From an archaeon (GTDB lineage Archaea > Nanobdellota > Nanobdellia > Woesearchaeales > GW2011-AR9): a DNA stretch of 62,343 bases. The position numbers and the translations under genes are program-made. Below are positions 37,933 through 54,986 of the stretch, in pieces; position 1 is the stretch's first letter; each line of letters opens with the position of its first letter. The stretch is taken from positions 1-62,343 of the forward strand of contig NZCK01000019.1 in assembly GCA_002688265.1 (NCBI GenBank), given 5' to 3'. The notes under the pieces were generated by a model. The model had not been told where the DNA came from. It was given only the letters and a program-made list of their open reading frames with translations, and searched no databases.

Positions 37933-38982
37933 TCAGGACAGTTCTTTATTTCTTGTTAATTTCCAACATATCTGAAACATTTCTTGCATTTCATCAACCT
38001 TAACAATGTTAATTTTAGTTTTACTAAATGTTAATTTTTTTAAAACTAATTTTCTAATTAAAGCAGAACCTGCACCAACACCCCCTGTAAAAACTAATAA
38101 ATCTACCCCATTTAAAATTGCAATTGCTGAGCCAATAGCTTTTTGTACTTGATGAATGTAAATTTGTAAAGCTTGTTTTTCTTTGCTATTATTATTAGAT
38201 TTTTTCTGTTTTTTTATTTTTTCTAAGATTATTCTTAAGTCATTATTTCCAGTTAAACCAAGAAAACCAGATTCTTGATTGAGAATTTTGCTACTGATTT
38301 TTAGAGTTGGATCAACACTTCCAGACCTAGTCGAACCCATTATTCCTTCAAGTGGACTAAAACCCATAGAGTTATCTATACTTTTACCGTTTTTTACTGC
38401 AGTAACACTAGAGCCACTTCCTAAATGACAAATAATAGTTTTCTTTGCTAACTTTTTTTCTTTTTTTAATTTTGAGATCGCTGATTGGACTGCTAACCCA
38501 TGATATCCAAAGCGATAAATTTGGTTTTTCTTAGTAAGCCTATTTGGAATCGCATAAGTTTTAGCATAATTTGGGACACTTTTATGAAAACTTGAATCAG
38601 AACAAGCAATAATCTTGGCTTTTGGAAAATGTTTTTTAATTATAGTTATTTCTTTTAAAACAGGTTTGATGTGAAGTAGAGCTAAATGTTTTATTTCTTT
38701 TAATCTGCTAAGATATTTTTGATTGATTACTTGATGTTCTTGAAAAAAGATTCCTGGGGCAACCACCCTAACTCCAAAAATCAAATTACTTTTACGCAAA
38801 TCAATATTTTGTTTTTTTAATTTAGAAATGATTATACTGAAAATAGAGTTTTCTTTTTTTCTCCCCTTATTATTATTATTTAATGTTAATATTAATTCAG
38901 TTTTTGATTTATTTTTAATATAAACAGAGTATTTATTAGAACTGCTTCCAATATTAGACATTATAAATATTTTAGAATTCAT
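37933..38982 (-). CDS. ackA: Acetate kinase (short form)
   Basis: NIGSSSNKYSVY, YRFGYHGL and ICHLGSGSSVTAVKNGKSIDNSMGFSPLEGIMGSTRSGSVDP. ATG 38980-38982 overlaps the xfp TGA 38979-38981 (ATGA). Confidence 0.85.
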   Translation of the reverse strand: MNSKIFIMSNIGSSSNKYSVYIKNKSKTELILTLNNNNKGRKKENSIFSIIISKLKKQNIDLRKSNLIFGVRVVAPGIFFQEHQVINQKYLSRLKEIKHLALLHIKPVLKEITIIKKHFPKAKIIACSDSSFHKSVPNYAKTYAIPNRLTKKNQIYRFGYHGLAVQSAISKLKKEKKLAKKTIICHLGSGSSVTAVKNGKSIDNSMGFSPLEGIMGSTRSGSVDPTLKISSKILNQESGFLGLTGNNDLRIILEKIKKQKKSNNNSKEKQALQIYIHQVQKAIGSAIAILNGVDLLVFTGGVGAGSALIRKLVLKKLTFSKTKINIVKVDEMQEMFQICWKLTRNKELS

Positions 38983-41360
38983 ACTTTCTCCCATTTCCAA
39001 AATTTTATTTCTTCAGGGTCTTCACCATACTTTAAGATGTACTTTTTATGATCTCTAAGTTTTTGTTCGAAAGAGATGATCTTCTTTTGAGCTTGTTTCT
39101 TAGAAATCTTTTTTTCTTTTAGCAGTAGGTTTGTAGCTTCTATACACAAATGAAATCTACTTGTTTGATTTCTCACATGCATATCAAAAGGAGTTGTTGT
39201 AGAACCATGTTCAGTGTAACCGTGAACATGAAATCTTTTTGGGTTTTCATGATGAATTAAAAGTGAATTAACATCATTTGGATAACCATGATAGTTAAAA
39301 ATAACTGGTTTGTTCTTTGTGAATAATTTTGCAAGTTTATTTTTTCTTAGTTTGTTGTGATTTTCATCAGTAATTTGTCCAATACCAATAGAAGTTAACT
39401 CCATAATGTTAATGAATCTAATTTTTATATTAGGAAAATCTATCTTGAGACATTGAATTGCTGCAATTGACTCTTTGGTTAGATAATCTCCAACTGCTGC
39501 AAAAATGATGTCTGGATTATTGTCACTTAGAAAATCCCATTGCATGAAACCTTGTTCTAATTCTTTTTTAGCCATATCTAAAGTTAACCAACGAGGTTCT
39601 ACAGTTTTTCCAGCAACAATAACATTAATTTTGTCTGTTGATTTGAGGCATTTTTCTAAAACAGCTAAAGTACTTGATCCATCTGGGGGGAAATAAACAT
39701 TGGCAATATTTCCTGGTTTTTCTAACATACCACTAATAAATTTAGGATTTTGATGCGAAAAACCATTATGTTCTTGACGCCAACCACTTGACGTAAGAAT
39801 GTAATTTATAGACGCTGCACCACGTCTCCAAGGAATTTCTCTTGATACTCTAATAAACTTTTCATATTGGTCAGCCATACTACTGATTATTTCAATAAAA
39901 GCTTCATAGGAAGCCAAAATGGCATGGCGGCCAGTTAAAATGTAACCTTGTGTTAAACCCTGAAGTGTGTGTTCGCTTAACATTTCAATTACCTTACCAG
40001 AGTTTGCTATATCAGTGTCCCAAGATTTTTTGGGCCATACAAATGCTCTTTTTGTAGATTTGAACATAGCGTCTAATTTGTTAGAGTAAGTTTCATCAGG
40101 AGAAAATAATCTGAAATTATCAGGATTGAGTTTAGTTAATTGTTCCAAATATGCTCCAGCTCTTCTCATACTACTAGAACCAATTGTCCCTGGGATGCTT
40201 GAGTCCTCAGTTAAGTTTTTGATGTTTGGTAATTTGAGTTTCTGTTTGATCTTAGCAGCGTAGGCATGATGATTTAAACCCATACAATATTTTTCTTTAG
40301 GAGTTATAGATTTTATCTCTTTACAGAATCCTGTCTTTTCTGAAAACAATTCTTCAAATTTGTAAGATTTAAACCATTTTTCAATTTTTTCTAATTCGTA
40401 ATCGTCAGTTTTCGCTTTCTTTCCCACAACTTGATGCGATAAACAGTTCCCTTCTATTTTTTTATGATGTAATTCTTTTATACCTGTCCAACCTTTTTTT
40501 GATCTTAAAATAATCATTGGAAATTTGGGTTTGTTTTTTTGTTTCTTTGATTTTTTGTTTCTTGCGTCATTTTGAATTTTAGTAATTGTTTTGTAAGCTA
40601 AATTTATTGCATTATACATGCTGCTATACATTTTATTATCTTCTTTTTCATCAACAATAATCGGAAGGTACCCATAACCTTTGAATAAATTTTTTAATTC
40701 AGAATTAGACATTCTACCATAAATAGTTGGTCCTGAGATTTTGTATCCATTTAGATGCAAAATAGGTAAGACAGCACCATTAGTTTTAGGATCAATAAAT
40801 TTGTTGCAATGCCAAGCGGTTGCTGTTGGACCAGTTTCAGCTTCACCATCTCCTACTAAGCAAGTTACAATCAAATTGGGATTGTCAAGAATAGCTCCAT
40901 AACTTGTGGCTAAGGCGTAACCTAATTCTCCTCCTTCTAAAATAACTCCTGGTGCCCCCGGGTTACTGTGACTTGGAAAACCGTAAGGCCAACTAAATTG
41001 GCTAGTAATATATTGCAAACCTGCTTTTGTTTTCTTTGCTTTTTTGTAAAATTTTTCAAGGCTACCTTCCATAAATAAGTTAGCTTGTAGTGCAGGAAAT
41101 CCGTGACCTGGCCCCAAAACAAAAAGCATACTTTGATTTGTTTCTTTGATTAATCTTTGTAGATTAGCGTAAACAAAATTTATTCCTGGACTTGTTCCCC
41201 AATGGCCAAGTAGTCTTGGTTTAATATCTTTATGACTGAGTTGTTTATTTAGAAGAACGTTGTTTTGTAAGTAGATTTGGGCAGCTGCAATGTAATTTGC
41301 TGCTCGGTGGTATTTCTTTATTGCATCAATTGCTTTTGCTTTAGTTAATTTTGGAACCAT
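38979..41360 (-). CDS. xfp: Phosphoketolase (xylulose-5-P/fructose-6-P)
   Basis: GHWGTSPG, EGGELGY, GDGEAETGP, 793 aa. Confidence 0.92.
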   Translation of the reverse strand: MVPKLTKAKAIDAIKKYHRAANYIAAAQIYLQNNVLLNKQLSHKDIKPRLLGHWGTSPGINFVYANLQRLIKETNQSMLFVLGPGHGFPALQANLFMEGSLEKFYKKAKKTKAGLQYITSQFSWPYGFPSHSNPGAPGVILEGGELGYALATSYGAILDNPNLIVTCLVGDGEAETGPTATAWHCNKFIDPKTNGAVLPILHLNGYKISGPTIYGRMSNSELKNLFKGYGYLPIIVDEKEDNKMYSSMYNAINLAYKTITKIQNDARNKKSKKQKNKPKFPMIILRSKKGWTGIKELHHKKIEGNCLSHQVVGKKAKTDDYELEKIEKWFKSYKFEELFSEKTGFCKEIKSITPKEKYCMGLNHHAYAAKIKQKLKLPNIKNLTEDSSIPGTIGSSSMRRAGAYLEQLTKLNPDNFRLFSPDETYSNKLDAMFKSTKRAFVWPKKSWDTDIANSGKVIEMLSEHTLQGLTQGYILTGRHAILASYEAFIEIISSMADQYEKFIRVSREIPWRRGAASINYILTSSGWRQEHNGFSHQNPKFISGMLEKPGNIANVYFPPDGSSTLAVLEKCLKSTDKINVIVAGKTVEPRWLTLDMAKKELEQGFMQWDFLSDNNPDIIFAAVGDYLTKESIAAIQCLKIDFPNIKIRFINIMELTSIGIGQITDENHNKLRKNKLAKLFTKNKPVIFNYHGYPNDVNSLLIHHENPKRFHVHGYTEHGSTTTPFDMHVRNQTSRFHLCIEATNLLLKEKKISKKQAQKKIISFEQKLRDHKKYILKYGEDPEEIKFWKWEKV

Positions 41361-41516: not shown

Positions 41517-42968
41517 ATGGATACAATAAAGAAATGCCAAAATCTTATGCTAGGCATAGCTATAGGAGATGCATTTGGAGCTGGATATGAAAATTTATCA
41601 AGGAGCGAAGTACAAGAAGCCCTTAATATGACTCAATATGACTGTTATCCATTTGAGTCTGGTCACAAACCAGGACATTATACAGATGATACTCAAATGT
41701 CTATAGCTGTTGCAAAAACATTATATGGTATGTGTTTTGACAGAAGGAATCTTACTCATTCATTTTTGGAAGAATATAAATCAAATAATATCATAGGATA
41801 TTCAAGAGGTTTTTTATCTATATTAGAAGCATCAAAATCTCCTGAAGATTTTATCAATAATGTGGTCCATACAGAACGAAATGGTGCAGTAATGCGAGCA
41901 GTACCTATTGGTGTACTACAAGATATTAAAAAAGTCGTAGAAAATAGTGTTATTAATGCTCAAATCTCTCATAATACTGATAGTGCAATAACAGCATCTG
42001 TTGCAATTGCTCTTGCTTCTCATTATTTCTTTTATAATCTTGGTCAACCAAGTGAAGTTATTGAGTTTTGTATTGATAATATGGGTGGGTTTAATCCTGA
42101 GTCATTAGAATATCTTGCTGAAGTGTCAAAAATGGGTGAATTAAAACCTGAAATTTTGTTTGGAGAGGAAAACAAAGATCATGGGGTGCCTATTCACGGA
42201 TTAAAAACTGCTGGTGCAGTATTGTATCTTTTAACTCGTTATTCCCATGATGGAATGGAAACTTTAAAGCAAGCAGTTTTACTTTTGGGAGATACTGATA
42301 CAACATCATCAATAGCATTAGGGATAGTACAATCCGCAAGTGAAGGAGGATTGGATGATTTTCTCCAAGATGATCTACAAAACGGGGATTATGGGAAAGA
42401 TTATATTCGAAGAATAGGAACAAGGCTTGCTACCATTCTTCCTATGGAAGTTAGGAGCATAAAACGGCTAAATTATCCTGGTAGTCGTCAATCAATGATA
42501 GTGCAAACACTTGACGGTCTGCTTGAAATTTTGGATCCAATTTATCTTACTCAAGTAATGAAACAATTATTTGATCAAATTGACTATAAACCAACTGACA
42601 TAATCTTAGCGGTTGATGCATCAGGATACATCCCTGCTGTTGCTGCATCGATAGTTACTGGTTTAAAACTTGGAGCATCTAAGAAAGCTGATTTGGAAAT
42701 TTCAAATAGAATTGAGTTTTATGAACCTGGAACTCCTAATCCAAATGTATTCATGTATTCCATACCAGATAATAGCCGTGTAATTATTGTTGATGATGAA
42801 ATAATGTCAGGAAATACAGCATATAATGCTGCTAAAGCACTTATGGAGAATGGTCATAAAGTACTTGCCACAGTTGTTCCTGTTGAATCAACTAGACATA
42901 ATTCCAGAGAAAAGCTTAGCAGTAAGGGGATTTCCTTAATAAGTCATACTAAGCATGATTTCTCCTAG
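41517..42968 (+). CDS. ADP-ribosylglycohydrolase (ARH/DraG family) fused to a type I phosphoribosyltransferase domain
   Basis: N-terminus has GIAIGDAFGAGYE, GHYTDDTQMSIAVA and LLLGDTDTTSSIALGI. C-terminus has the PRPP-binding loop RVIIVDDEIMSGNTAYNAAKAL. Confidence 0.75.
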   Translation: MDTIKKCQNLMLGIAIGDAFGAGYENLSRSEVQEALNMTQYDCYPFESGHKPGHYTDDTQMSIAVAKTLYGMCFDRRNLTHSFLEEYKSNNIIGYSRGFLSILEASKSPEDFINNVVHTERNGAVMRAVPIGVLQDIKKVVENSVINAQISHNTDSAITASVAIALASHYFFYNLGQPSEVIEFCIDNMGGFNPESLEYLAEVSKMGELKPEILFGEENKDHGVPIHGLKTAGAVLYLLTRYSHDGMETLKQAVLLLGDTDTTSSIALGIVQSASEGGLDDFLQDDLQNGDYGKDYIRRIGTRLATILPMEVRSIKRLNYPGSRQSMIVQTLDGLLEILDPIYLTQVMKQLFDQIDYKPTDIILAVDASGYIPAVAASIVTGLKLGASKKADLEISNRIEFYEPGTPNPNVFMYSIPDNSRVIIVDDEIMSGNTAYNAAKALMENGHKVLATVVPVESTRHNSREKLSSKGISLISHTKHDFS

Positions 42969-46633: not shown

Positions 46634-48997
46634 TTACATTTTCCCATATATGAAAATATCTTTTCTAAATGGGTACTTGCTTACTTTATAACTTGGCAAT
46701 TTTTTGAAACCTGCTTTCTTAAATAGACTAAGAATCTTAGTTTTATCTTCGATCACATTACTATTCGGTGCTACATTCAAAAAATGATGTGTTATATAGA
46801 AACAATATTTGGCATTTGTTGGCAATATTTTTTCTATTTTATTTAGATAAGAAGCCAAATCTTCTACATGTCCAAGATCATTATGAGAGATGAAAACATT
46901 AGCCTTAGTTACAGACCTAGGGATATTTCCTGGTCTGATCTTATGAATATCTACTTTGTGAGATCGCTTTTGCTTTTTGATTATATATCGCAAATAAATT
47001 CTTTCCTCATTAGATGAACAAAAGATATGATGTTTTTTATAATCATGTTTTTTTCGATGAATCATATGACTAATAATACCTGTTGGTGAATTAGAATCAA
47101 CTATCACAGTATTTTTATTATAAGGACCTGTGATTTTAAGAATTTGCCGGTAAGCTGGCAAGACTTTTGGAAGAAAGTGGAAATAGTGTCTCATTTTGGC
47201 GAGAAATGATTTTCTCAAAGTGATATATTCTACTTCATAGAATAACTCAATAAAGAAGTAGGCTGGAATTCCAAACAAAACAAGAGCTATTGATATTTTT
47301 AATATCTCCCAAGCATGATGAGTTTCTTTAGTGAACATAAAGAGTAAGAATAGCATGAAAAGAACAGTAAAAATAGGTCCAACTTTTCCAAAAGGAACTT
47401 TATAAGACCTATTTATATTAGGTTTTTTGAATCTTAAAATAACAACAGCCAATAAAACAGCTGAGTAAATGGCAAGTATAATTGGAACTAACATATGCAG
47501 TAAAGTCTCATAGTTTCCAGAACCAATGATTACAAGAACAATCAAAGTGATTACTTGAAAAGCTATTGAGATATAAGGACTTTTGTATTTTGGATGTACT
47601 TTTGCAAATTGAACAAAAAACAATTTGTCTTCAGCAACTGACATTAATAATCTTGGTGCGGTAACAATCCAACACGCAACAGCACCTATGATTGAAATGA
47701 ATACAAGTATTGTAAAAATTAAGGATCCTGTTGATCCGAACATGGCTCCAGCTAAATCTGCAAGTGGTGCAGTTGAAGACCCATAAGTTTGCCAAGGAAT
47801 CACTCCCATTGATACTAATGAAAGTAGTAAGGCTAATACTGCAATGATGACTGTTCCCCAAATTAAAGCTTTTGGCATAACTTTCTTAGGATTTTTTGTT
47901 TCGGCACTCAAGAACACTGCACTTTCCCACCCGAAAAAGGTTTCAGCAATAAAAAATATAGTAAGCAAGATAGAGAAGCTAGGCATAACAAAAAATGGAT
48001 CAAAATTAGCAAAATCCAACTTAAACAGACCAGGGATAATTAAACCTAAGACTGTTGCAAGGGTAACAAGAGCAAAAGAAACCAAAATAAAAACCCCTGT
48101 TTGCATTCCTGTATAAGCCACCAAATTGAATGCAAAAATTAGAACTATGGCAATTAGGATATAGTATTGAGAGTGATTTGGAATTAAATATTGAAGAGCA
48201 CCAAGAAGTAGCATAGCAATAGTAATGTTTCCGGCAATCGCTGTCATCCAACCAATAGCAAAAGACCAGAATCTGCCATATGCTTGCTTTGCAAATTCAT
48301 AAACTCCTCCTGCTTTTGGAAACATTGCCGTTAATTCGCTAAAACACATGGCAATATACAAAGAAATAATTGATAGAACGGCCCAAGATATTAAAGATGC
48401 TGGACCAGCATTTTTTGCACCAGCTGCTGTTAAAAAATAAATACCAGTTCCCATGATGGAATTTACTGTGATTAAGAGTATTGCTTTGAAAGGTAAAATC
48501 CCCTTCATAGTTTCTTCGTGAGTGTGCTTTAACTTCTTTGAACCTTTCTCTTTTGTAGCAACATTCCTGAGCCTCAAAAACCTTGGCAGCCTTGTTGCAA
48601 CTCTTAGCAAACGCAGCATTCTACCAGATCTTGCAGCAATTCTTAAGACTCTAACTCCTCTTAATCCTTGAGATAGGGCTAAACCTCTAACATCTATGAA
48701 TAAGAAGTTTAGAGGGATTGTTGCTATGATATCTAGCCAGTATTTCCTAAACCAAGTTTGCCAATTAGCTTCTTCTTTGAAACGAAAGTGCAAATCGATT
48801 GCAAAGATAATTATAATATATGCATCAAAAATATTTACAAAAACTCTAGTAATCAAGTTGATACTAAAGAATAGATCATAAATTGTTATTGTGAGTAGTA
48901 GTATTAGTGATGGAGGGATGAGTAGAGAGACTATGTTGTCTAAGTTTGATTTACTGCGAGCATTTGTTCTAGTAGAATTTTTTCTTGGTTCAACCAT
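46634..48997 (-). CDS. Three-part fusion: voltage-sensor-like domain (S1-S4), APC-family amino acid/polyamine permease, and a degenerate class I methyltransferase-like domain
   Basis: S4-like RGVRVLRIAARSGRMLRLLRVATRLPRFLRLR preceded by YWLDIIATIPLNFLF. APC block ITVNSIMGTGIYFL...GPASLISWAVL...FSELTAMFPKAGGVYEF. C-terminus NVFISHNDLGHVEDLASYLNKIEKILPTNAKY is MTase-like, but motif I reads VIVDSNSPTG. Confidence 0.7.
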   Translation of the reverse strand: MVEPRKNSTRTNARSKSNLDNIVSLLIPPSLILLLTITIYDLFFSINLITRVFVNIFDAYIIIIFAIDLHFRFKEEANWQTWFRKYWLDIIATIPLNFLFIDVRGLALSQGLRGVRVLRIAARSGRMLRLLRVATRLPRFLRLRNVATKEKGSKKLKHTHEETMKGILPFKAILLITVNSIMGTGIYFLTAAGAKNAGPASLISWAVLSIISLYIAMCFSELTAMFPKAGGVYEFAKQAYGRFWSFAIGWMTAIAGNITIAMLLLGALQYLIPNHSQYYILIAIVLIFAFNLVAYTGMQTGVFILVSFALVTLATVLGLIIPGLFKLDFANFDPFFVMPSFSILLTIFFIAETFFGWESAVFLSAETKNPKKVMPKALIWGTVIIAVLALLLSLVSMGVIPWQTYGSSTAPLADLAGAMFGSTGSLIFTILVFISIIGAVACWIVTAPRLLMSVAEDKLFFVQFAKVHPKYKSPYISIAFQVITLIVLVIIGSGNYETLLHMLVPIILAIYSAVLLAVVILRFKKPNINRSYKVPFGKVGPIFTVLFMLFLLFMFTKETHHAWEILKISIALVLFGIPAYFFIELFYEVEYITLRKSFLAKMRHYFHFLPKVLPAYRQILKITGPYNKNTVIVDSNSPTGIISHMIHRKKHDYKKHHIFCSSNEERIYLRYIIKKQKRSHKVDIHKIRPGNIPRSVTKANVFISHNDLGHVEDLASYLNKIEKILPTNAKYCFYITHHFLNVAPNSNVIEDKTKILSLFKKAGFKKLPSYKVSKYPFRKDIFIYGKM

Positions 48998-49024: not shown

Positions 49025-50644
49025 TTAATTGTTTCCTTGAGGAAGGTTGAGTTGTAAAGCTTCCTTTCTCATCTTGATTTTTCTCTTTTGTCTATTATAA
49101 TTAATAACTAAAGTATGTGTTGCGTCTCTAATCTTTCTAATCAAAAGCATCATAGGACTGGTTTTCTTGAATTTTAGCGTATCATTTGAATTTGGTAAAA
49201 CAATCTCTTCATCTTGTTTCGCTAAACCAATAAGGGGAATTTGAAGATTTAATTGTTTAAGCGCTTTCATTGAAGCTGTAACTTGACCCTTACCACCATC
49301 GATAATTATTAACTCAGGCATTTCTTTGTTTTCTTTTTGTAATCTATGATACCTTCTATAAACAACTTCACGCATTGCTGCAAAATCGTCTTGTTTGCCT
49401 AAAGTAGATTGAATTTCGAATTTGCGGTAAGCTGTTTTGTTGGCTTTGCCATCTTTGAATTGAGTCATTCCAGCTACAATGTGTTCATCACCCAAATTAG
49501 AGATATCAAAACACTCAATTGTTTGTGGAAGTTCAGGAAGATTAAGTTTGTCTTGTAATTCTTGCAAAATTTTGTTTTCTAAAAGATAATGGGCATTCTT
49601 TTCAGCTATTTCAATTAGTTTTACTTTGTCTCCCCTTTGAGGAATAATGAATTCTACTTTTGATCCTTTTAGTCTTGTTAAATAACCTTCAAGGGCCTTC
49701 TTATCTGACTTATTATTCCAAGCTTTTCTATTAATGATAATCTCACTTGGAATTGAATTTTTTGAATAATATAACTTTATGAAATCTTCTAAAAGTTCTG
49801 GGTCGTTATCAAACTTGTACTCTTTCTTCCCAGAAATAACCCCTTTGTGAATTGAAAAAACAATTATTGCTGTTTTGTTTTTCTGTTCTAGCATCGCTAC
49901 TACATCTTGGTTGTATCTGACTATTCTATCTACTGCTTGTTTTGCTTCCATGTACTGAATCGCTTCAAGTTGTTTGCGTTTTTCGAGTGCCAATTCAAAG
50001 TTTAAGTTTTCTGCAGCAGTTTTCATATCTCTTTGTAATTGTTTTTCTATTACTTTACTATTGCCTTTGAGAAATTGAATTGCTTGTTTTACTTGCTCTT
50101 GATATTCTCTTTCTGTAATTTTTTTAATACAAGGACCTTTGCATAAATTGATATGATAATTAAGACAAGCTCGTTTAGGTAAATTTTTGCAAGTTCTAAG
50201 TTTGAAAATTTTTAGACAAAGTTGAATTAATTCACGTCTGGCACTGCCATCAGTAAATGGTCCAAAATAAGTTCCATCTTTTTTGATGATTCTAGTTGAT
50301 AAAATCCTTGGAAACTTTTCGTTGGTTGTAAGTTTAATGTAAGCGTAACTTTTGGCATCTTTTAAAGTAATATTGTATTTTGGTTTATGTTGTTTGATGA
50401 GTTTGTTTTCTAACAGCAAGGCTTCTACTTCAGTGTTAACAACTATGGTTTGTAAATCTGTGATGTTTTTGACAAGAACGATGGTTTTAGCAGAATGAGT
50501 TTTTTTATTAGATTCTTGAAAGTATGATCTAACTCTGTTCCTAAGGTTTTTAGCTTTACCAATGTAGATAATGTTGTTATTTTTATCTTTGAATAGGTAG
50601 ACTCCTGGATCTTTTGGTAGGTTGGTTAGTTGTTCTTGAAGCAT
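49025..50644 (-). CDS. uvrC: Excinuclease ABC subunit C
   Basis: GIY-YIG N-terminus (GVYLFKDKNNNIIYIGKAKNLRNRVRSYF), UvrBC-interaction and endonuclease V-like regions. At 539 aa it is shorter than typical. Confidence 0.9.
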   Translation of the reverse strand: MLQEQLTNLPKDPGVYLFKDKNNNIIYIGKAKNLRNRVRSYFQESNKKTHSAKTIVLVKNITDLQTIVVNTEVEALLLENKLIKQHKPKYNITLKDAKSYAYIKLTTNEKFPRILSTRIIKKDGTYFGPFTDGSARRELIQLCLKIFKLRTCKNLPKRACLNYHINLCKGPCIKKITEREYQEQVKQAIQFLKGNSKVIEKQLQRDMKTAAENLNFELALEKRKQLEAIQYMEAKQAVDRIVRYNQDVVAMLEQKNKTAIIVFSIHKGVISGKKEYKFDNDPELLEDFIKLYYSKNSIPSEIIINRKAWNNKSDKKALEGYLTRLKGSKVEFIIPQRGDKVKLIEIAEKNAHYLLENKILQELQDKLNLPELPQTIECFDISNLGDEHIVAGMTQFKDGKANKTAYRKFEIQSTLGKQDDFAAMREVVYRRYHRLQKENKEMPELIIIDGGKGQVTASMKALKQLNLQIPLIGLAKQDEEIVLPNSNDTLKFKKTSPMMLLIRKIRDATHTLVINYNRQKRKIKMRKEALQLNLPQGNN

Positions 50645-51920: not shown

Positions 51921-54884
51921 TTATCCTTGAGCAGAGTTATTTCTTGATTCACGTCGAAATAAATCCTTCAAAAACTGACCAGTATAACTTTTCTTAACCT
52001 TAGCAATTTCTTCTGGTGTCCCTTTAGCTAAAACAATCCCACCTTTCTCCCCACCTTCAGGACCCAAATCTATCACATAATCACAAGATTTGATCACATC
52101 CAAATTATGCTCAATCACATAAATAGAATTGCCTTTATCAACCAAACGATTGAGAACCTGCAATAACTTACGAATATCCTCAAAATGCAGACCAGTAGTT
52201 GGTTCGTCTAGTAAATAAACAGTATGTCCACGTTTTTGCTTAGCAAGTTCACGAGTTAATTTAATTCTCTGAGATTCACCACCAGAAAGAGTAATGGCAC
52301 TTTGACCCAACTTAATATATCCTAGACCAACATCATACAAAGTTTGAACTTTACGTTTAATCGAAGGATGGTTTTCAAAAAACAAAAGAGCAGCTTCGAC
52401 AGTCATATTCAAAACATCAGCAATATTCTTTTCTTTAAACAAAATAGAAAGTGTATCTTTATTGTACCTTTTTCCTTTACATTCATCACAAGTCACATAA
52501 ACGTCAGGCAAAAAATTCATTTCAATTTTAATAGTCCCATCTCCACGACAACTTTCACACCTACCACCTGGAATATTAAAACTAAAACGTCCAGCTTTGT
52601 AAGCTCGCATTCTAGCTTCTTTGGTTCCAGCATAAATTTTACGAATTTCATCAAAAATTTTAGTATAAGTTGCAGGATTAGACCTTGGAGTTTTTCCAAT
52701 AGGTTCCTGATTGATCAAAATTACACTTTTAACATCTTCTGGAATTGAAAGAGATTTGTGCGCTCCCATTTTCTCAAACGTTTGACCTAACTTCTTCTTT
52801 AAAGCAGGGATAAGTGTTTGATTCATTAAAGTAGATTTTCCAGAACCAGAAACTCCAGTTATGACACAAAGAATTTTGGTTGGCAAAGTAATATTGACAT
52901 TTTGCAAATTGTTCTGAGTGCAACCAATCAAAGTAATCTCATCTTTAGAAGTCTTTGGAAGTTCCCTTCTTTTTGTAGGTAACTCTATTTGTTCCTTTCC
53001 ACACAAAAACTGACCTGTGTGGCTGGCTTTATTTTTCATAACTTGCTCAGGTGTCCCTTCAGCTACAATTGATCCGCCATGTACACCAGCGCCAGGTCCC
53101 ATATCTATTAAATAGTCAGCCGCTCGCATAGTGTCTTCATCATGCTCAACAACAATTAAAGTATTACCAAGGTCCCGCAGACGATGAAGTGTGGCAATTA
53201 ACTTTTGATTGTCTTTTTGATGTAATCCAATACTTGGTTCATCTAATATGTACATAACTCCCATTAAATTTGCACCAATTTGAGTTGCTAACCTGATCCT
53301 TTGCGCTTCCCCACCACTCAATGTTCTTGCGGTTCTTGACAGATTAAGATATCCCAGCCCTACATTGTTTAGAAAAGTAAGTCTGTCAGTAATTTCTTTG
53401 AGAATTTGGCTGGCAATGAATAAATCTTTTTCGTTCAATTTTTTTGGAATGATTGTTATAAATTCTAGAGACCTTTCAATACTCAAATCTGTAATTTCAA
53501 TAATGTTCTTACGAGCAATCTTTACTGCAAGCATAGTTTCTTTCAAACGTTTACCCTCACAAATTTGACAAGGCTTACTTCGCATCATAGTCTCAAGTTT
53601 TTTCCTACGGTATTCAGACTCTGTTTGTTTGTAAAGACGCATACTCTGAGGAATTATTCCTTCAAAGCCTTGGTCCATATGCATTCTAGCACCAGTGCTC
53701 CACCTACCTCGAATCTTTTCAGTAGTTCCATAAAGCAAGATTTGTAATTGTTTTTCAGTGTAGTCTTTTATTGGTGTAAAAATATCAAAACCAGATTGTT
53801 TTCCAACAACAGCAATTTGCTGGCTACGCCATTTATTATCCATTTTACTATAAATAGCAATGGCACCATCAATAATACTCAATTTTTTGTTTGGGATTAT
53901 AAGTTCAGGGTCAATTTCTAAATGCTCACCTAGACCAGAACAGGTCCCACAAGCTCCAAACGGAGAATTGAAAGAAAACATTCTTGGCTCCAATTCTTCG
54001 AAAGTGATCTCTTGATGAGTTGGACAAGCACCAAAATTGGAGTACAAAGTTTCACCAGCACCTCTTCCAATTTGTTTTAGTGTTTCACTTTTACCTGTTT
54101 TATTCTTTGAAGATTTTGATTTATTTCTAGAATTTTTTTTGATATTCTCTTCTGCCCTTTTATCTGGATCCAGAACAACCAATTTTCCATCACCTTTTTG
54201 TAAAGCAGTTTCCACAGCTTCACTGAGCCTTAACCTAGTTTCTTGATTAATAGTAATTCGATCAATCACAGCTTCAATCCAATGTTTTTCGTATCTACCT
54301 AACTTTATCTCATCTTTAATTGTATCTAAACGATAAATTCTCCCATCGCATCTTACTCTGCTGAACCCTTCCTTTAATAGATCATCAAATATTTGTTCAT
54401 GAGTTCCTTTTTTCCCTCTAACGATTGGAGCTAAAATGATTAATTGTTTGCCAATGTCAGACATGATCATATTGGTGATAGTTTCTGCACTCAGTGGTTT
54501 AATTGGGCTATCACATTTAGGACAATGAACCGTTCCAATTCTGGCGTATAGAAGCCTTAGGTAATCATAAATTTCTGTTACAGTTCCGACAGTGGATCTA
54601 GGATTTTTACTAGTGGTTTTTTGTTCAATAGAAATTGCTGGTGAGAGACCTTCAATACTGTCAATATCAGGTTTGTTCATGATCCCTAAGAATTGTCTAG
54701 CATATGAAGATAGAGACTCAACGTAACGCCTTTGTCCTTCAGCGTAGATTGTGTCGAAGGCTAAACTGGATTTTCCACTTCCTGATAATCCAGTGATAAC
54801 TGTGAATTTGTTTCTTGGAATAGTAACTGTGATGTTTTTTAGATTATGTTGCCGAGCACCACGTACTATAATATCTTTTAACAT
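51921..54884 (-). CDS. uvrA: Excinuclease ABC subunit A
   Basis: GLSGSGKSSLAFDTIYAEGQRRYVESLSSYARQF, two ABC modules and zinc-finger cysteines. Start trimmed from 54965 to ATG 54884 (MLKDIIVRGARQHNLKNI). Confidence 0.95.
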   Translation of the reverse strand: MLKDIIVRGARQHNLKNITVTIPRNKFTVITGLSGSGKSSLAFDTIYAEGQRRYVESLSSYARQFLGIMNKPDIDSIEGLSPAISIEQKTTSKNPRSTVGTVTEIYDYLRLLYARIGTVHCPKCDSPIKPLSAETITNMIMSDIGKQLIILAPIVRGKKGTHEQIFDDLLKEGFSRVRCDGRIYRLDTIKDEIKLGRYEKHWIEAVIDRITINQETRLRLSEAVETALQKGDGKLVVLDPDKRAEENIKKNSRNKSKSSKNKTGKSETLKQIGRGAGETLYSNFGACPTHQEITFEELEPRMFSFNSPFGACGTCSGLGEHLEIDPELIIPNKKLSIIDGAIAIYSKMDNKWRSQQIAVVGKQSGFDIFTPIKDYTEKQLQILLYGTTEKIRGRWSTGARMHMDQGFEGIIPQSMRLYKQTESEYRRKKLETMMRSKPCQICEGKRLKETMLAVKIARKNIIEITDLSIERSLEFITIIPKKLNEKDLFIASQILKEITDRLTFLNNVGLGYLNLSRTARTLSGGEAQRIRLATQIGANLMGVMYILDEPSIGLHQKDNQKLIATLHRLRDLGNTLIVVEHDEDTMRAADYLIDMGPGAGVHGGSIVAEGTPEQVMKNKASHTGQFLCGKEQIELPTKRRELPKTSKDEITLIGCTQNNLQNVNITLPTKILCVITGVSGSGKSTLMNQTLIPALKKKLGQTFEKMGAHKSLSIPEDVKSVILINQEPIGKTPRSNPATYTKIFDEIRKIYAGTKEARMRAYKAGRFSFNIPGGRCESCRGDGTIKIEMNFLPDVYVTCDECKGKRYNKDTLSILFKEKNIADVLNMTVEAALLFFENHPSIKRKVQTLYDVGLGYIKLGQSAITLSGGESQRIKLTRELAKQKRGHTVYLLDEPTTGLHFEDIRKLLQVLNRLVDKGNSIYVIEHNLDVIKSCDYVIDLGPEGGEKGGIVLAKGTPEEIAKVKKSYTGQFLKDLFRRESRNNSAQG

Positions 54885-54920
54885 GATGGCACCTCTCTGT
54901 GCTCTTGGCAACGATCGACA

Positions 54921-54986
54921 AGCTTTGCTTGTCGAAAATTGATTTCTTTTTTCACTTGCCAGCAAGGGACATTCGCCACACTAAAT
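54921..54986. repeat. GC-rich intergenic element, copy C (short; abuts the uvrA start region)
   Basis: AAAATTGATTTCTTTTTTCACTTGCCAGCAAGGGACATTCGCCACACTAAATG. The 14-nt run CTTGCCAGCAAGGG is identical to copy A (4450-4463). Confidence 0.45.

Follow-up and report, generated by a model that had tools for sequence, protein, structure and literature searches.

A pore-less voltage-sensor-like domain fused to an APC-type amino-acid transporter and a degenerate methyltransferase-fold domain in a Woesearchaeales archaeon

In this study, we describe a gene on the minus strand of a 62,343-nucleotide stretch of DNA (contig NZCK01000019.1 of assembly GCA_002688265.1; hereafter the window) from an archaeon of the Woesearchaeales, lineage GW2011-AR9. 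According to the open reading frame (ORF) listing, the gene encodes a protein of 787 amino acids (aa) in which a voltage-sensor-like domain (VSD) lacking a channel pore, an APC transporter and a methyltransferase-like domain of pseudo-enzyme type are fused in one chain. A preliminary description, made from the sequence alone, had reported this three-part ORF, and its presence is confirmed here. The architectural interpretation given at that time is supported, and the functional claim, that membrane potential gates amino-acid uptake, is plausible. The reading that we favour, and hold to be moderately probable, is that the protein is an amino-acid transporter gated by membrane potential through its N-terminal VSD, the C-terminal pseudo-enzyme being regulatory. 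The preliminary description was mistaken in one respect: it knew of no fusion between a voltage sensor and a secondary transporter, and SLC9C1 is such a protein (PMC13095418; PMC10620092).

The features of the gene, with the evidence on which each was delimited, are listed below. Helix and strand assignments were taken from AlphaFold2 (AF2) models with their predicted local distance difference test (pLDDT) values; SAM stands for S-adenosylmethionine and TM for transmembrane helix.

46634..48997, minus strand: whole gene, a single uninterrupted ORF of 787 aa with an ATG start; the stop codon is at 46634-46636
48869..48946, minus strand: S1 helix, aa 18-43 (AF2 helix with pLDDT ~80; column conservation; aligns to KvAP S1)
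48773..48856, minus strand: S2 helix, aa 48-75 (D58, F65, D68 and R72; KvAP alignment)
48701..48763, minus strand: S3 helix, aa 79-99 (D89, I90, A92 and P95; LDIIATIP motif)
48557..48685, minus strand: S4-like helix, aa 105-147 (sequence, family statistics and AF2; aligns to KvAP and HCN S4)
48491..48556, minus strand: basic cytoplasmic linker from S4 to TM1, aa 148-169 (conservation; predicted disordered, pLDDT 33-38)
47240..48490, minus strand: APC/LeuT-fold amino-acid transporter core with ~12 TM helices, aa 170-586 (Pfam, TIGR00909, Foldseek, phmmer and motifs)
47129..47239, minus strand: helical connector, aa 587-623 (AF2 helices 589-605 and 613-623; Y587, Y591 and R595 invariant)
46637..47128, minus strand: class I methyltransferase-fold domain, aa 624-787 (AF2, family profile against PDB, degenerate SAM motifs)

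All the peptides quoted in the preliminary description were located in this chain: YWLDIIATIPLNFLF at residues 86-100, the Arg-rich stretch at 113-144, NSIMGTGIYFL at 179-189, FSELTAMFPKAGGVYEF at 219-235 and VIVDSNSPTG at 631-640.

The residue pattern of the N-terminal domain provides the strongest evidence for its putative identity as a voltage sensor. Conservation was counted in an alignment of 64 family sequences. The S2 helix carries an outer acid (D58), an aromatic plug (F65), an inner acid at +3 (D68) and an arginine at +4 (R72); D58, D68 and R72 are present in all 64 sequences and F65 in 63. In S3, D89 is Asp in 59 sequences and Glu in four, while I90, A92 and P95 are invariant. An S2 aromatic/acidic pair together with an S3 acid is the definition of the gating-charge transfer centre (PMC13095418). 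The S1 helix has a LIPP motif and an outer acid, D41 (Glu in most homologues), and 63/64 sequences have an acidic residue (Asp or Glu) at this site, which is located towards the outside end of S1. The equivalents in KvAP are D62 for D58, D72 for D68, R76 for R72, E93 for D89 and P99 for P95. The spacing of residues 58/65/68/72 (+7, +3, +4) is that of E283/F290/E293/R297 in Shaker and E226/F233/E236/R240 in Kv1.2. Across the family, identity over the entire domain is only ~50%, yet the charge-transfer-centre residues and the outer S1 and S2 acids are kept.

The S4-like helix contains 12 basic residues (11 Arg and 1 Lys, counted over aa 104-146), mostly at every third position, with arginines at 113, 116, 119, 123, 126, 129, 132, 136, 139, 142 and 144, and it ends in the invariant P138-R139-F140. 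Across the family it is 36-70 aa long (median 49) and has 10-19 Lys or Arg and 0-2 Asp or Glu. Orthologues differ in S4 length by RxxRxx repeat blocks, and the length goes far beyond that of canonical sensors. Since a helix of 49 residues, the family median, has about double the length needed to cross the membrane, and both S3 and the S3-S4 loop are short, S4 probably extends well into the cytoplasm, where its extension would resemble those of the hyperpolarisation-activated cyclic-nucleotide-gated (HCN) channels and SLC9C1. We infer an N-in topology, in which four TM helices are followed by a cytoplasmic linker and this in turn by the transporter's TM1a, because the positive-inside rule would place the basic N-tail and S2-S3 loop inside and because APC carriers start in the cytoplasm. 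The linker between S4 and TM1 has an invariant H160 and the family motif KIRKVQPHEK.

Profile searches covering Ion_trans, AA_permease_2 and methyltransferase families found voltage-sensor similarity in the protein alone. Residues 1-166 matched Pfam Ion_trans with E=2.6e-5 and 24.0 bits over profile positions 14-119 of 241, which correspond to the S1-S4 half. A PDB search with the single sequence gave weak matches, nearly all of them to the sensors of HCN, KvAP and AKT1. With a sensor family profile made from 30 orthologous N-termini, 58 matches were obtained in the PDB at E<=1, and in 55 of these the matched part was the sensor region of a voltage-gated K+ or HCN channel chain; the archaeal KvAP ranked first (E=5.6e-5), with an alignment spanning S1-S4. 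Alignment of the same profile to the KvAP VSD by hhalign gave a probability of 87.5% and E=3.6e-6 over 97 columns. Moreover, 13 of the 30 family N-termini matched Ion_trans individually (E<0.01, best E=1.7e-6), and stand-alone relatives recovered with the family profile (E down to ~1e-25) passed the Ion_trans gathering cutoff of 25 bits, with 26.0 and 30.3 bits in the two that were sampled. The half-profile match, the signature residues, the KvAP profile match and the homologues thus all bear out the earlier proposal of an S1-S4 voltage-sensor-like N-terminus. That no pore follows S4 was also upheld. The Ion_trans match stops at profile position 119/241, AA_permease_2 begins at residue 171 and the APC core starts ~23 residues after S4, so that S5-P-S6 cannot fit, and an S5-P-loop-S6 pore is absent after S4.

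Structure prediction gave a divided answer. AF2 placed the helices of the N-terminal domain at 18-43, 48-75, 79-99 and 105-147, and S1-S3 were confident (pLDDT ~80). The preliminary description had proposed an AlphaFold model to see whether S1-S4 pack canonically; the confidence of the prediction extends to S1-S3 and not to S4. Several observations weigh against a working sensor. The S4 is helical yet of low confidence (pLDDT 44-58), and the model of the isolated N-terminal domain has a predicted TM-score (pTM) of only 0.48. Foldseek ranks the KvAP VSD, KCNQ2, Kv1.3 and NavAb first, but without significance (E>=0.3, TM-score ~0.4). The N-terminus falls 1 bit short of the Ion_trans gathering score, and its resemblance in sequence to established VSDs is modest, with E values around 1e-5 to 1e-6. 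The overlong, overcharged S4, lying partly outside the membrane, might be something other than a gating-charge carrier, and the gene neighbourhood of the fusion yields no functional partner. These points touch on the possibility that the domain was once a voltage sensor and now serves an ordinary APC permease in its structure, insertion into the membrane, lipid binding or oligomerisation. VSD-like domains that do not sense voltage are known from other families of channels, S4 is not packed into the bundle by AF2, and its length is unusually variable. We nevertheless regard a former sensor as unlikely: every charge-transfer residue class is invariant or nearly so at ~50% domain identity, which argues for selection on the sensing machinery itself.

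The middle part of the protein is a LAT/asc- and CAT-like amino-acid carrier of the APC/LeuT-fold superfamily, in agreement with its earlier assignment as an APC-type permease. With the whole protein, Pfam AA_permease_2 (PF13520) matched residues 171-570 with E=1e-48 (166.8 bits against a cutoff of 27), and AA_permease matched with E=2e-32. The best NCBIfam matches were generic APC subfamilies (TIGR00909 with E=4.8e-55, BcaP, and basic amino acid/polyamine antiporter); none of the NCBIfam equivalog cutoffs was reached, all matches lying far below them, so that NCBIfam does not permit a subfamily or substrate call. A full AlphaFold model built with 64 homologues had a mean pLDDT of 73 and a pTM of 0.73, with a confident LeuT-fold core. 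Foldseek placed this core nearest to BasC, a bacterial LAT-type exchanger (TM-score 0.83), followed by GkApcT, AdiC and LAT1, with E down to 2.6e-14; with the full model, it returned matches to APC-fold proteins only. BasC was also the nearest solved relative by sequence (phmmer, E=7.5e-34, 26% identity).

All 64 sequences have NSIMGTGI in TM1 and FFIAETFFGWESA in TM6, without variation. In APC structures, the unwound TM1 G-[ST]-G and TM6 motifs bind the amino-acid backbone. The protein therefore shares with BasC/LAT (SLC7) and GkApcT/CAT the 12-TM LeuT fold and the substrate-site motifs G-T-G in TM1 and F-G-W-E in TM6, whereas those carriers have neither the N-terminal four-helix domain nor the C-terminal methyltransferase-fold domain. 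A further difference concerns TM5. Residue 296 (48110-48112), where TM5 begins, is Thr in both the window protein and its closest relative, and Arg or Lys in 55/64 relatives; it is close to the position of a Lys that is important for function in ApcT and BasC. HMMER pairs the BasC Lys (K154; ApcT K158) with the invariant A294, in an alignment that is ambiguous by ~2 residues, and the R/K296 of the relatives probably represents the TM5 basic residue of ApcT, BasC and GkApcT. Loss of the TM5 lysine as a sign of uncoupled transport was considered and rejected, given the ambiguous alignment and the presence of Arg or Lys two residues away in most relatives.

The Thr at this position would also suit the proposal that S1-S4 forms an ion or proton path, Hv1-like or an omega-pore, which supplies or dissipates the coupling ion beside the transporter, and a precedent is found in Hv1, a pore-less VSD that conducts protons (PMC13095418). 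We judge such a path very improbable. The arginine ladder, with 10-19 basic residues in the family, is free of gaps, and the hydrophobic plug F65 is conserved. Hallmarks of Hv1 are a mid-membrane Asp in S1, a short S4 of the form RxWRxxR and a C-terminal coiled-coil; here the sole conserved S1 acid (position 41) is found close to the outer helix end and not in mid-membrane, and the S4 of the window protein, with its 12 basic residues, has no Trp and continues into the transporter. Furthermore, Hv channels have not been found in bacteria or archaea, according to a review (PMC13095418).

The C-terminal domain was resolved by AF2 into seven strands (631-635, 655-660, 682-686, 701-705, 730-738, 769-774 and 778-786; pLDDT 80-90) in the beta-alpha-beta order typical of class I methyltransferases. 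Its earlier description as methyltransferase-like holds at the level of the family. The C-terminal 200 aa, searched as a single sequence, including against Pfam, gave no match, whereas the family profile matched solved SAM methyltransferases in the PDB, the best being ToxA (E=2.3e-7). Methyltransf_11 and related families were matched individually by 18 of 22 relatives and by the window protein in no case, and precomputed methyltransferase Pfam matches exist for 50 of the 120 listed homologues. The SAM loop, previously called degenerate, is indeed so: motif I reads DSNSPTG in the window protein, against the canonical D-x-[DN]-C-[GR]-x-G in 25/64 homologues. At the end of beta2 (IFCSS), Ser replaces the Asp that binds the SAM ribose. 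The two motifs co-vary perfectly, the beta2 Asp being present in 25/25 homologues with the canonical motif and in 0/39 with a degenerate one. Both SAM-contact motifs are hence lost in 39/64 sequences, the window protein included, and the domain is otherwise well conserved, which suggests a pseudo-enzyme kept for a non-catalytic role; we describe it as a methyltransferase-derived pseudo-enzyme predicted no longer to bind SAM. S4 is shorter in the homologues with the canonical motif, with a median of 46 aa as compared with 49 aa (Mann-Whitney p=4e-5, for sequences that are phylogenetically non-independent).

The homologues that retain canonical motif I with the beta2 Asp, and the relatives that match methyltransferase Pfam families, would fit a sensor whose main task is to control the methyltransferase-type domain, the carrier supplying or removing the substrate of an enzyme that has decayed in this lineage. 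Ci-VSP is a precedent for an enzyme run by a VSD (PMC13095418). We find this improbable, since the SAM motifs are lost in the window protein and 38 homologues in which VSD and transporter are fully conserved, so that enzyme activity cannot be the conserved output; in addition, the VSD is tethered to TM1 and stands ~440 residues apart from the C-terminal domain. Control of the transporter by the sensor remains the preferred reading.

Homologues with the same architecture are numerous. At least 120 protein clusters were found, of 735-858 aa and 53-89% identity, with a query coverage of ~96-100% in nearly all (lowest 88%). In data with one genome per species, 69 loci matched and ~57 of them encode the fusion, with 744-861 aa where the ORF is complete. 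The architecture for which the preliminary description had proposed a survey of archaeal genomes is thus present, colinearly, in at least 120 clusters and ~57 species-representative genomes. The contiguity of the gene, about which the same description had been cautious, is settled by these dozens of colinear orthologues from independent genomes, which exclude a chimera or frameshift. That separate genes had been joined by an assembly chimera or frameshift is accordingly an explanation of negligible probability, even though the window is one assembled sequence: no evidence in support of an artefact was found, and the gene order is the same in the closest relative (89% identity). The G+C content of the fusion gene (0.31-0.34) is the same as that of the flanking DNA. 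In databases, the listed homologues, from Woesearchaeota and Nanoarchaeota, bear only such names as APC family permease or amino acid permease, and no precomputed Ion_trans match exists among the 120; databases thus annotate the family solely as APC permeases, and the VSD part is unrecognised there. The title 'uncultured Methanosarcinales archaeon' is given to many of the species-representative metagenome-assembled genomes with the fusion, and 'Gammaproteobacteria' to one locus encoding an HPP-VSD protein (see below). These titles are probably placeholders or wrong labels, as the proteins of those genomes cluster with Woesearchaeota and Nanoarchaeota.

The sensor was also found outside the fusion. 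A HMMER search with the sensor profile returned 554 proteins at E<=1e-3 and 159 at E<=1e-10. Among the best 150 matches, most are 150-230 aa long, with the sensor spanning nearly the entire protein, and some are fragments of the fusion. Twelve of the short matches are complete stand-alone ORFs of 154-220 aa in long Woesearchaeota or Micrarchaeota contigs, and the two stand-alone sensors that were sampled match Ion_trans over the sensor half only. In many stand-alone sensors, S3 is separated from a final R-x-PRF S4 segment by a helical insert of acidic character. A second architecture has an N-terminal TM_HPP domain (PF04982) followed by the pore-less sensor, in proteins of 305-317 aa; one such locus has a 1-deoxy-D-xylulose 5-phosphate (DXP) reductoisomerase gene among its neighbours, and its host may be bacterial. 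In a third architecture, the sensor follows an N-terminal region of ~130 aa with four TM helices and no Pfam match. The sensor therefore appears to behave as a mobile, pore-less module carried on different membrane proteins. Stand-alone VSD genes were not seen beside transporter genes. Housekeeping genes surround them, among these topoisomerase VI A/B and an aminoacyl-tRNA synthetase, and we consider these neighbourhoods to be uninformative lineage synteny.

A mechanism may be proposed in which S4 would shift with membrane potential and act, through its cytoplasmic extension and the short conserved basic linker, on TM1a, allowing or blocking the inward-open transition. TM1a is the inner-gate helix of LeuT-fold carriers. 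As an alternative or additional route, the S4 extension could contact the C-terminal domain and in this way permit or block alternating access. Amino-acid flux would then be confined to a suitably energised membrane, and the protein could act as a check valve against the loss of scavenged amino acids on depolarisation. The C-terminal pseudo-enzyme would probably be a cytoplasmic docking or regulatory platform, comparable to the cytoplasmic domain that SLC9C1 offers to its long S4.

In SLC9C1, a Na+/H+ exchanger (NHE) core is followed by a VSD and a domain for the binding of cyclic nucleotides (CNBD), activation is by hyperpolarisation, and the long S4 is embedded in cytoplasmic helices (PMC13095418). 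This S4 reaches the cytoplasmic domains and couples voltage to transport (PMC13095418; PMC10620092). Yeo et al., 2023 present SLC9C1, an exchanger of animal sperm, as the only known case, the coupling of which "appears to be unique to SLC9C1" (PMC10620092). The archaeal fusion likewise combines a secondary-transporter core, a pore-less S4-type VSD and a cytoplasmic regulatory domain in one polypeptide, and both have a conserved charge-transfer centre and an unusually long S4. The differences are considerable. The carrier fold is APC/LeuT in the archaeal protein and NhaA/CPA (NHE) in SLC9C1; the VSD is N-terminal and tethered to TM1 in the former and C-terminal to the carrier in the latter; and the third domain is a degenerate methyltransferase fold as opposed to a CNBD, no cyclic-nucleotide-binding Pfam match being found in the window protein. 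S4 has 10-19 basic residues in the archaeal family against 6 in SLC9C1, and the hosts are a DPANN archaeon and metazoans, respectively. With no sequence relationship beyond the VSD superfamily, the archaeal VSD-APC fusion is independent of SLC9C1, and it appears to be an independent invention of the same principle. The broader proposition, that it represents a class of S4-gated secondary transporter which is the first in prokaryotes and the second known overall, arisen independently of SLC9C1 on a LeuT-fold amino-acid carrier within a wider DPANN repertoire of stand-alone, HPP-fused and APC-fused pore-less VSDs, is one that we regard as evenly balanced. Literature searches turned up neither a described VSD-APC fusion, nor an account of the archaeal pore-less sensors, nor a survey of VSDs without a pore in prokaryotes; coverage was incomplete, and this is absence of evidence only.

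Other known systems share single parts of the architecture. KvAP and the prokaryotic Kv channels give the best S1-S4 match, with the acids, the R76 equivalent and the S3 proline aligned, whereas the archaeal fusion lacks S5-P-S6, has a much longer S4 and is fused to a carrier. Ci-VSP, Hv1 and TMEM266 similarly have an S1-S4 sensor without a channel pore; all three are eukaryotic, whereas the fusion is archaeal, its effector is a membrane carrier and not a phosphatase, and it has neither the Hv1 hallmarks nor a coiled-coil. KimA and the cation-chloride cotransporters, both Foldseek fold matches, have a LeuT/APC core followed by a cytosolic C-terminal domain. This domain is regulatory in both, the KimA entry being a structure with cyclic di-AMP (c-di-AMP) bound. 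Their C-terminal fold is a different one, and none of them has a voltage sensor. Mammalian LAT1 (Slc7a5), a relative within the APC family, modulates Kv1 channels through their VSD (PMC7690953), and this interaction of a VSD with an APC protein in trans parallels the fusion in cis of the archaeal protein.

If voltage gating of the fusion is borne out, electromechanical coupling to alternating-access transporters would be a recurrent evolutionary solution, of which this would be a second and widespread example, in another transporter fold, in archaea and with the sensor wired to TM1a. The protein would offer a compact prokaryotic model for S4 gating of a LeuT-fold carrier, the fold of neurotransmitter and SLC7 transporters. 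Genome-reduced DPANN archaea, thought to rely on scavenged amino acids, would link nutrient flux to their energetic state, and voltage sensors would serve, beyond channels and beyond eukaryotes, as general plug-in regulators of membrane transport. Whether voltage sensors arose separately from channel pores is a question to which the stand-alone and HPP-fused sensors are relevant. Additionally, the joint loss of both SAM motifs would be a clean example of an enzyme turned into a regulatory pseudo-enzyme.

The fusion gene is downstream of uvrC, at a distance of 27 bp, and is convergent with a gene for a membrane protein weakly similar to CTP_transf_1. Genes for UvrA, a PNP-family phosphorylase, RtcB and phosphoketolase are found nearby. 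Only the closest relative (89% identity) has this gene order as well, the neighbours of a distant homologue being unrelated. In the whole 62-kb window, neither tRNA genes nor Rfam RNAs were found by the respective scans. Three of the neighbouring genes were delimited as follows.

49025-50644, minus strand: UvrC gene, bacterial-type
51921-54965, minus strand: UvrA gene, bacterial-type
38979-41360, minus strand: phosphoketolase (XFP) gene

The phosphoketolase and the bacterial-type UvrC and UvrA thus occur in what is apparently a DPANN archaeal genome. A 483-aa ORF at 41517-42968 on the plus strand combines ADP-ribosylglycohydrolase and phosphoribosyltransferase domains, which is an unusual fusion.

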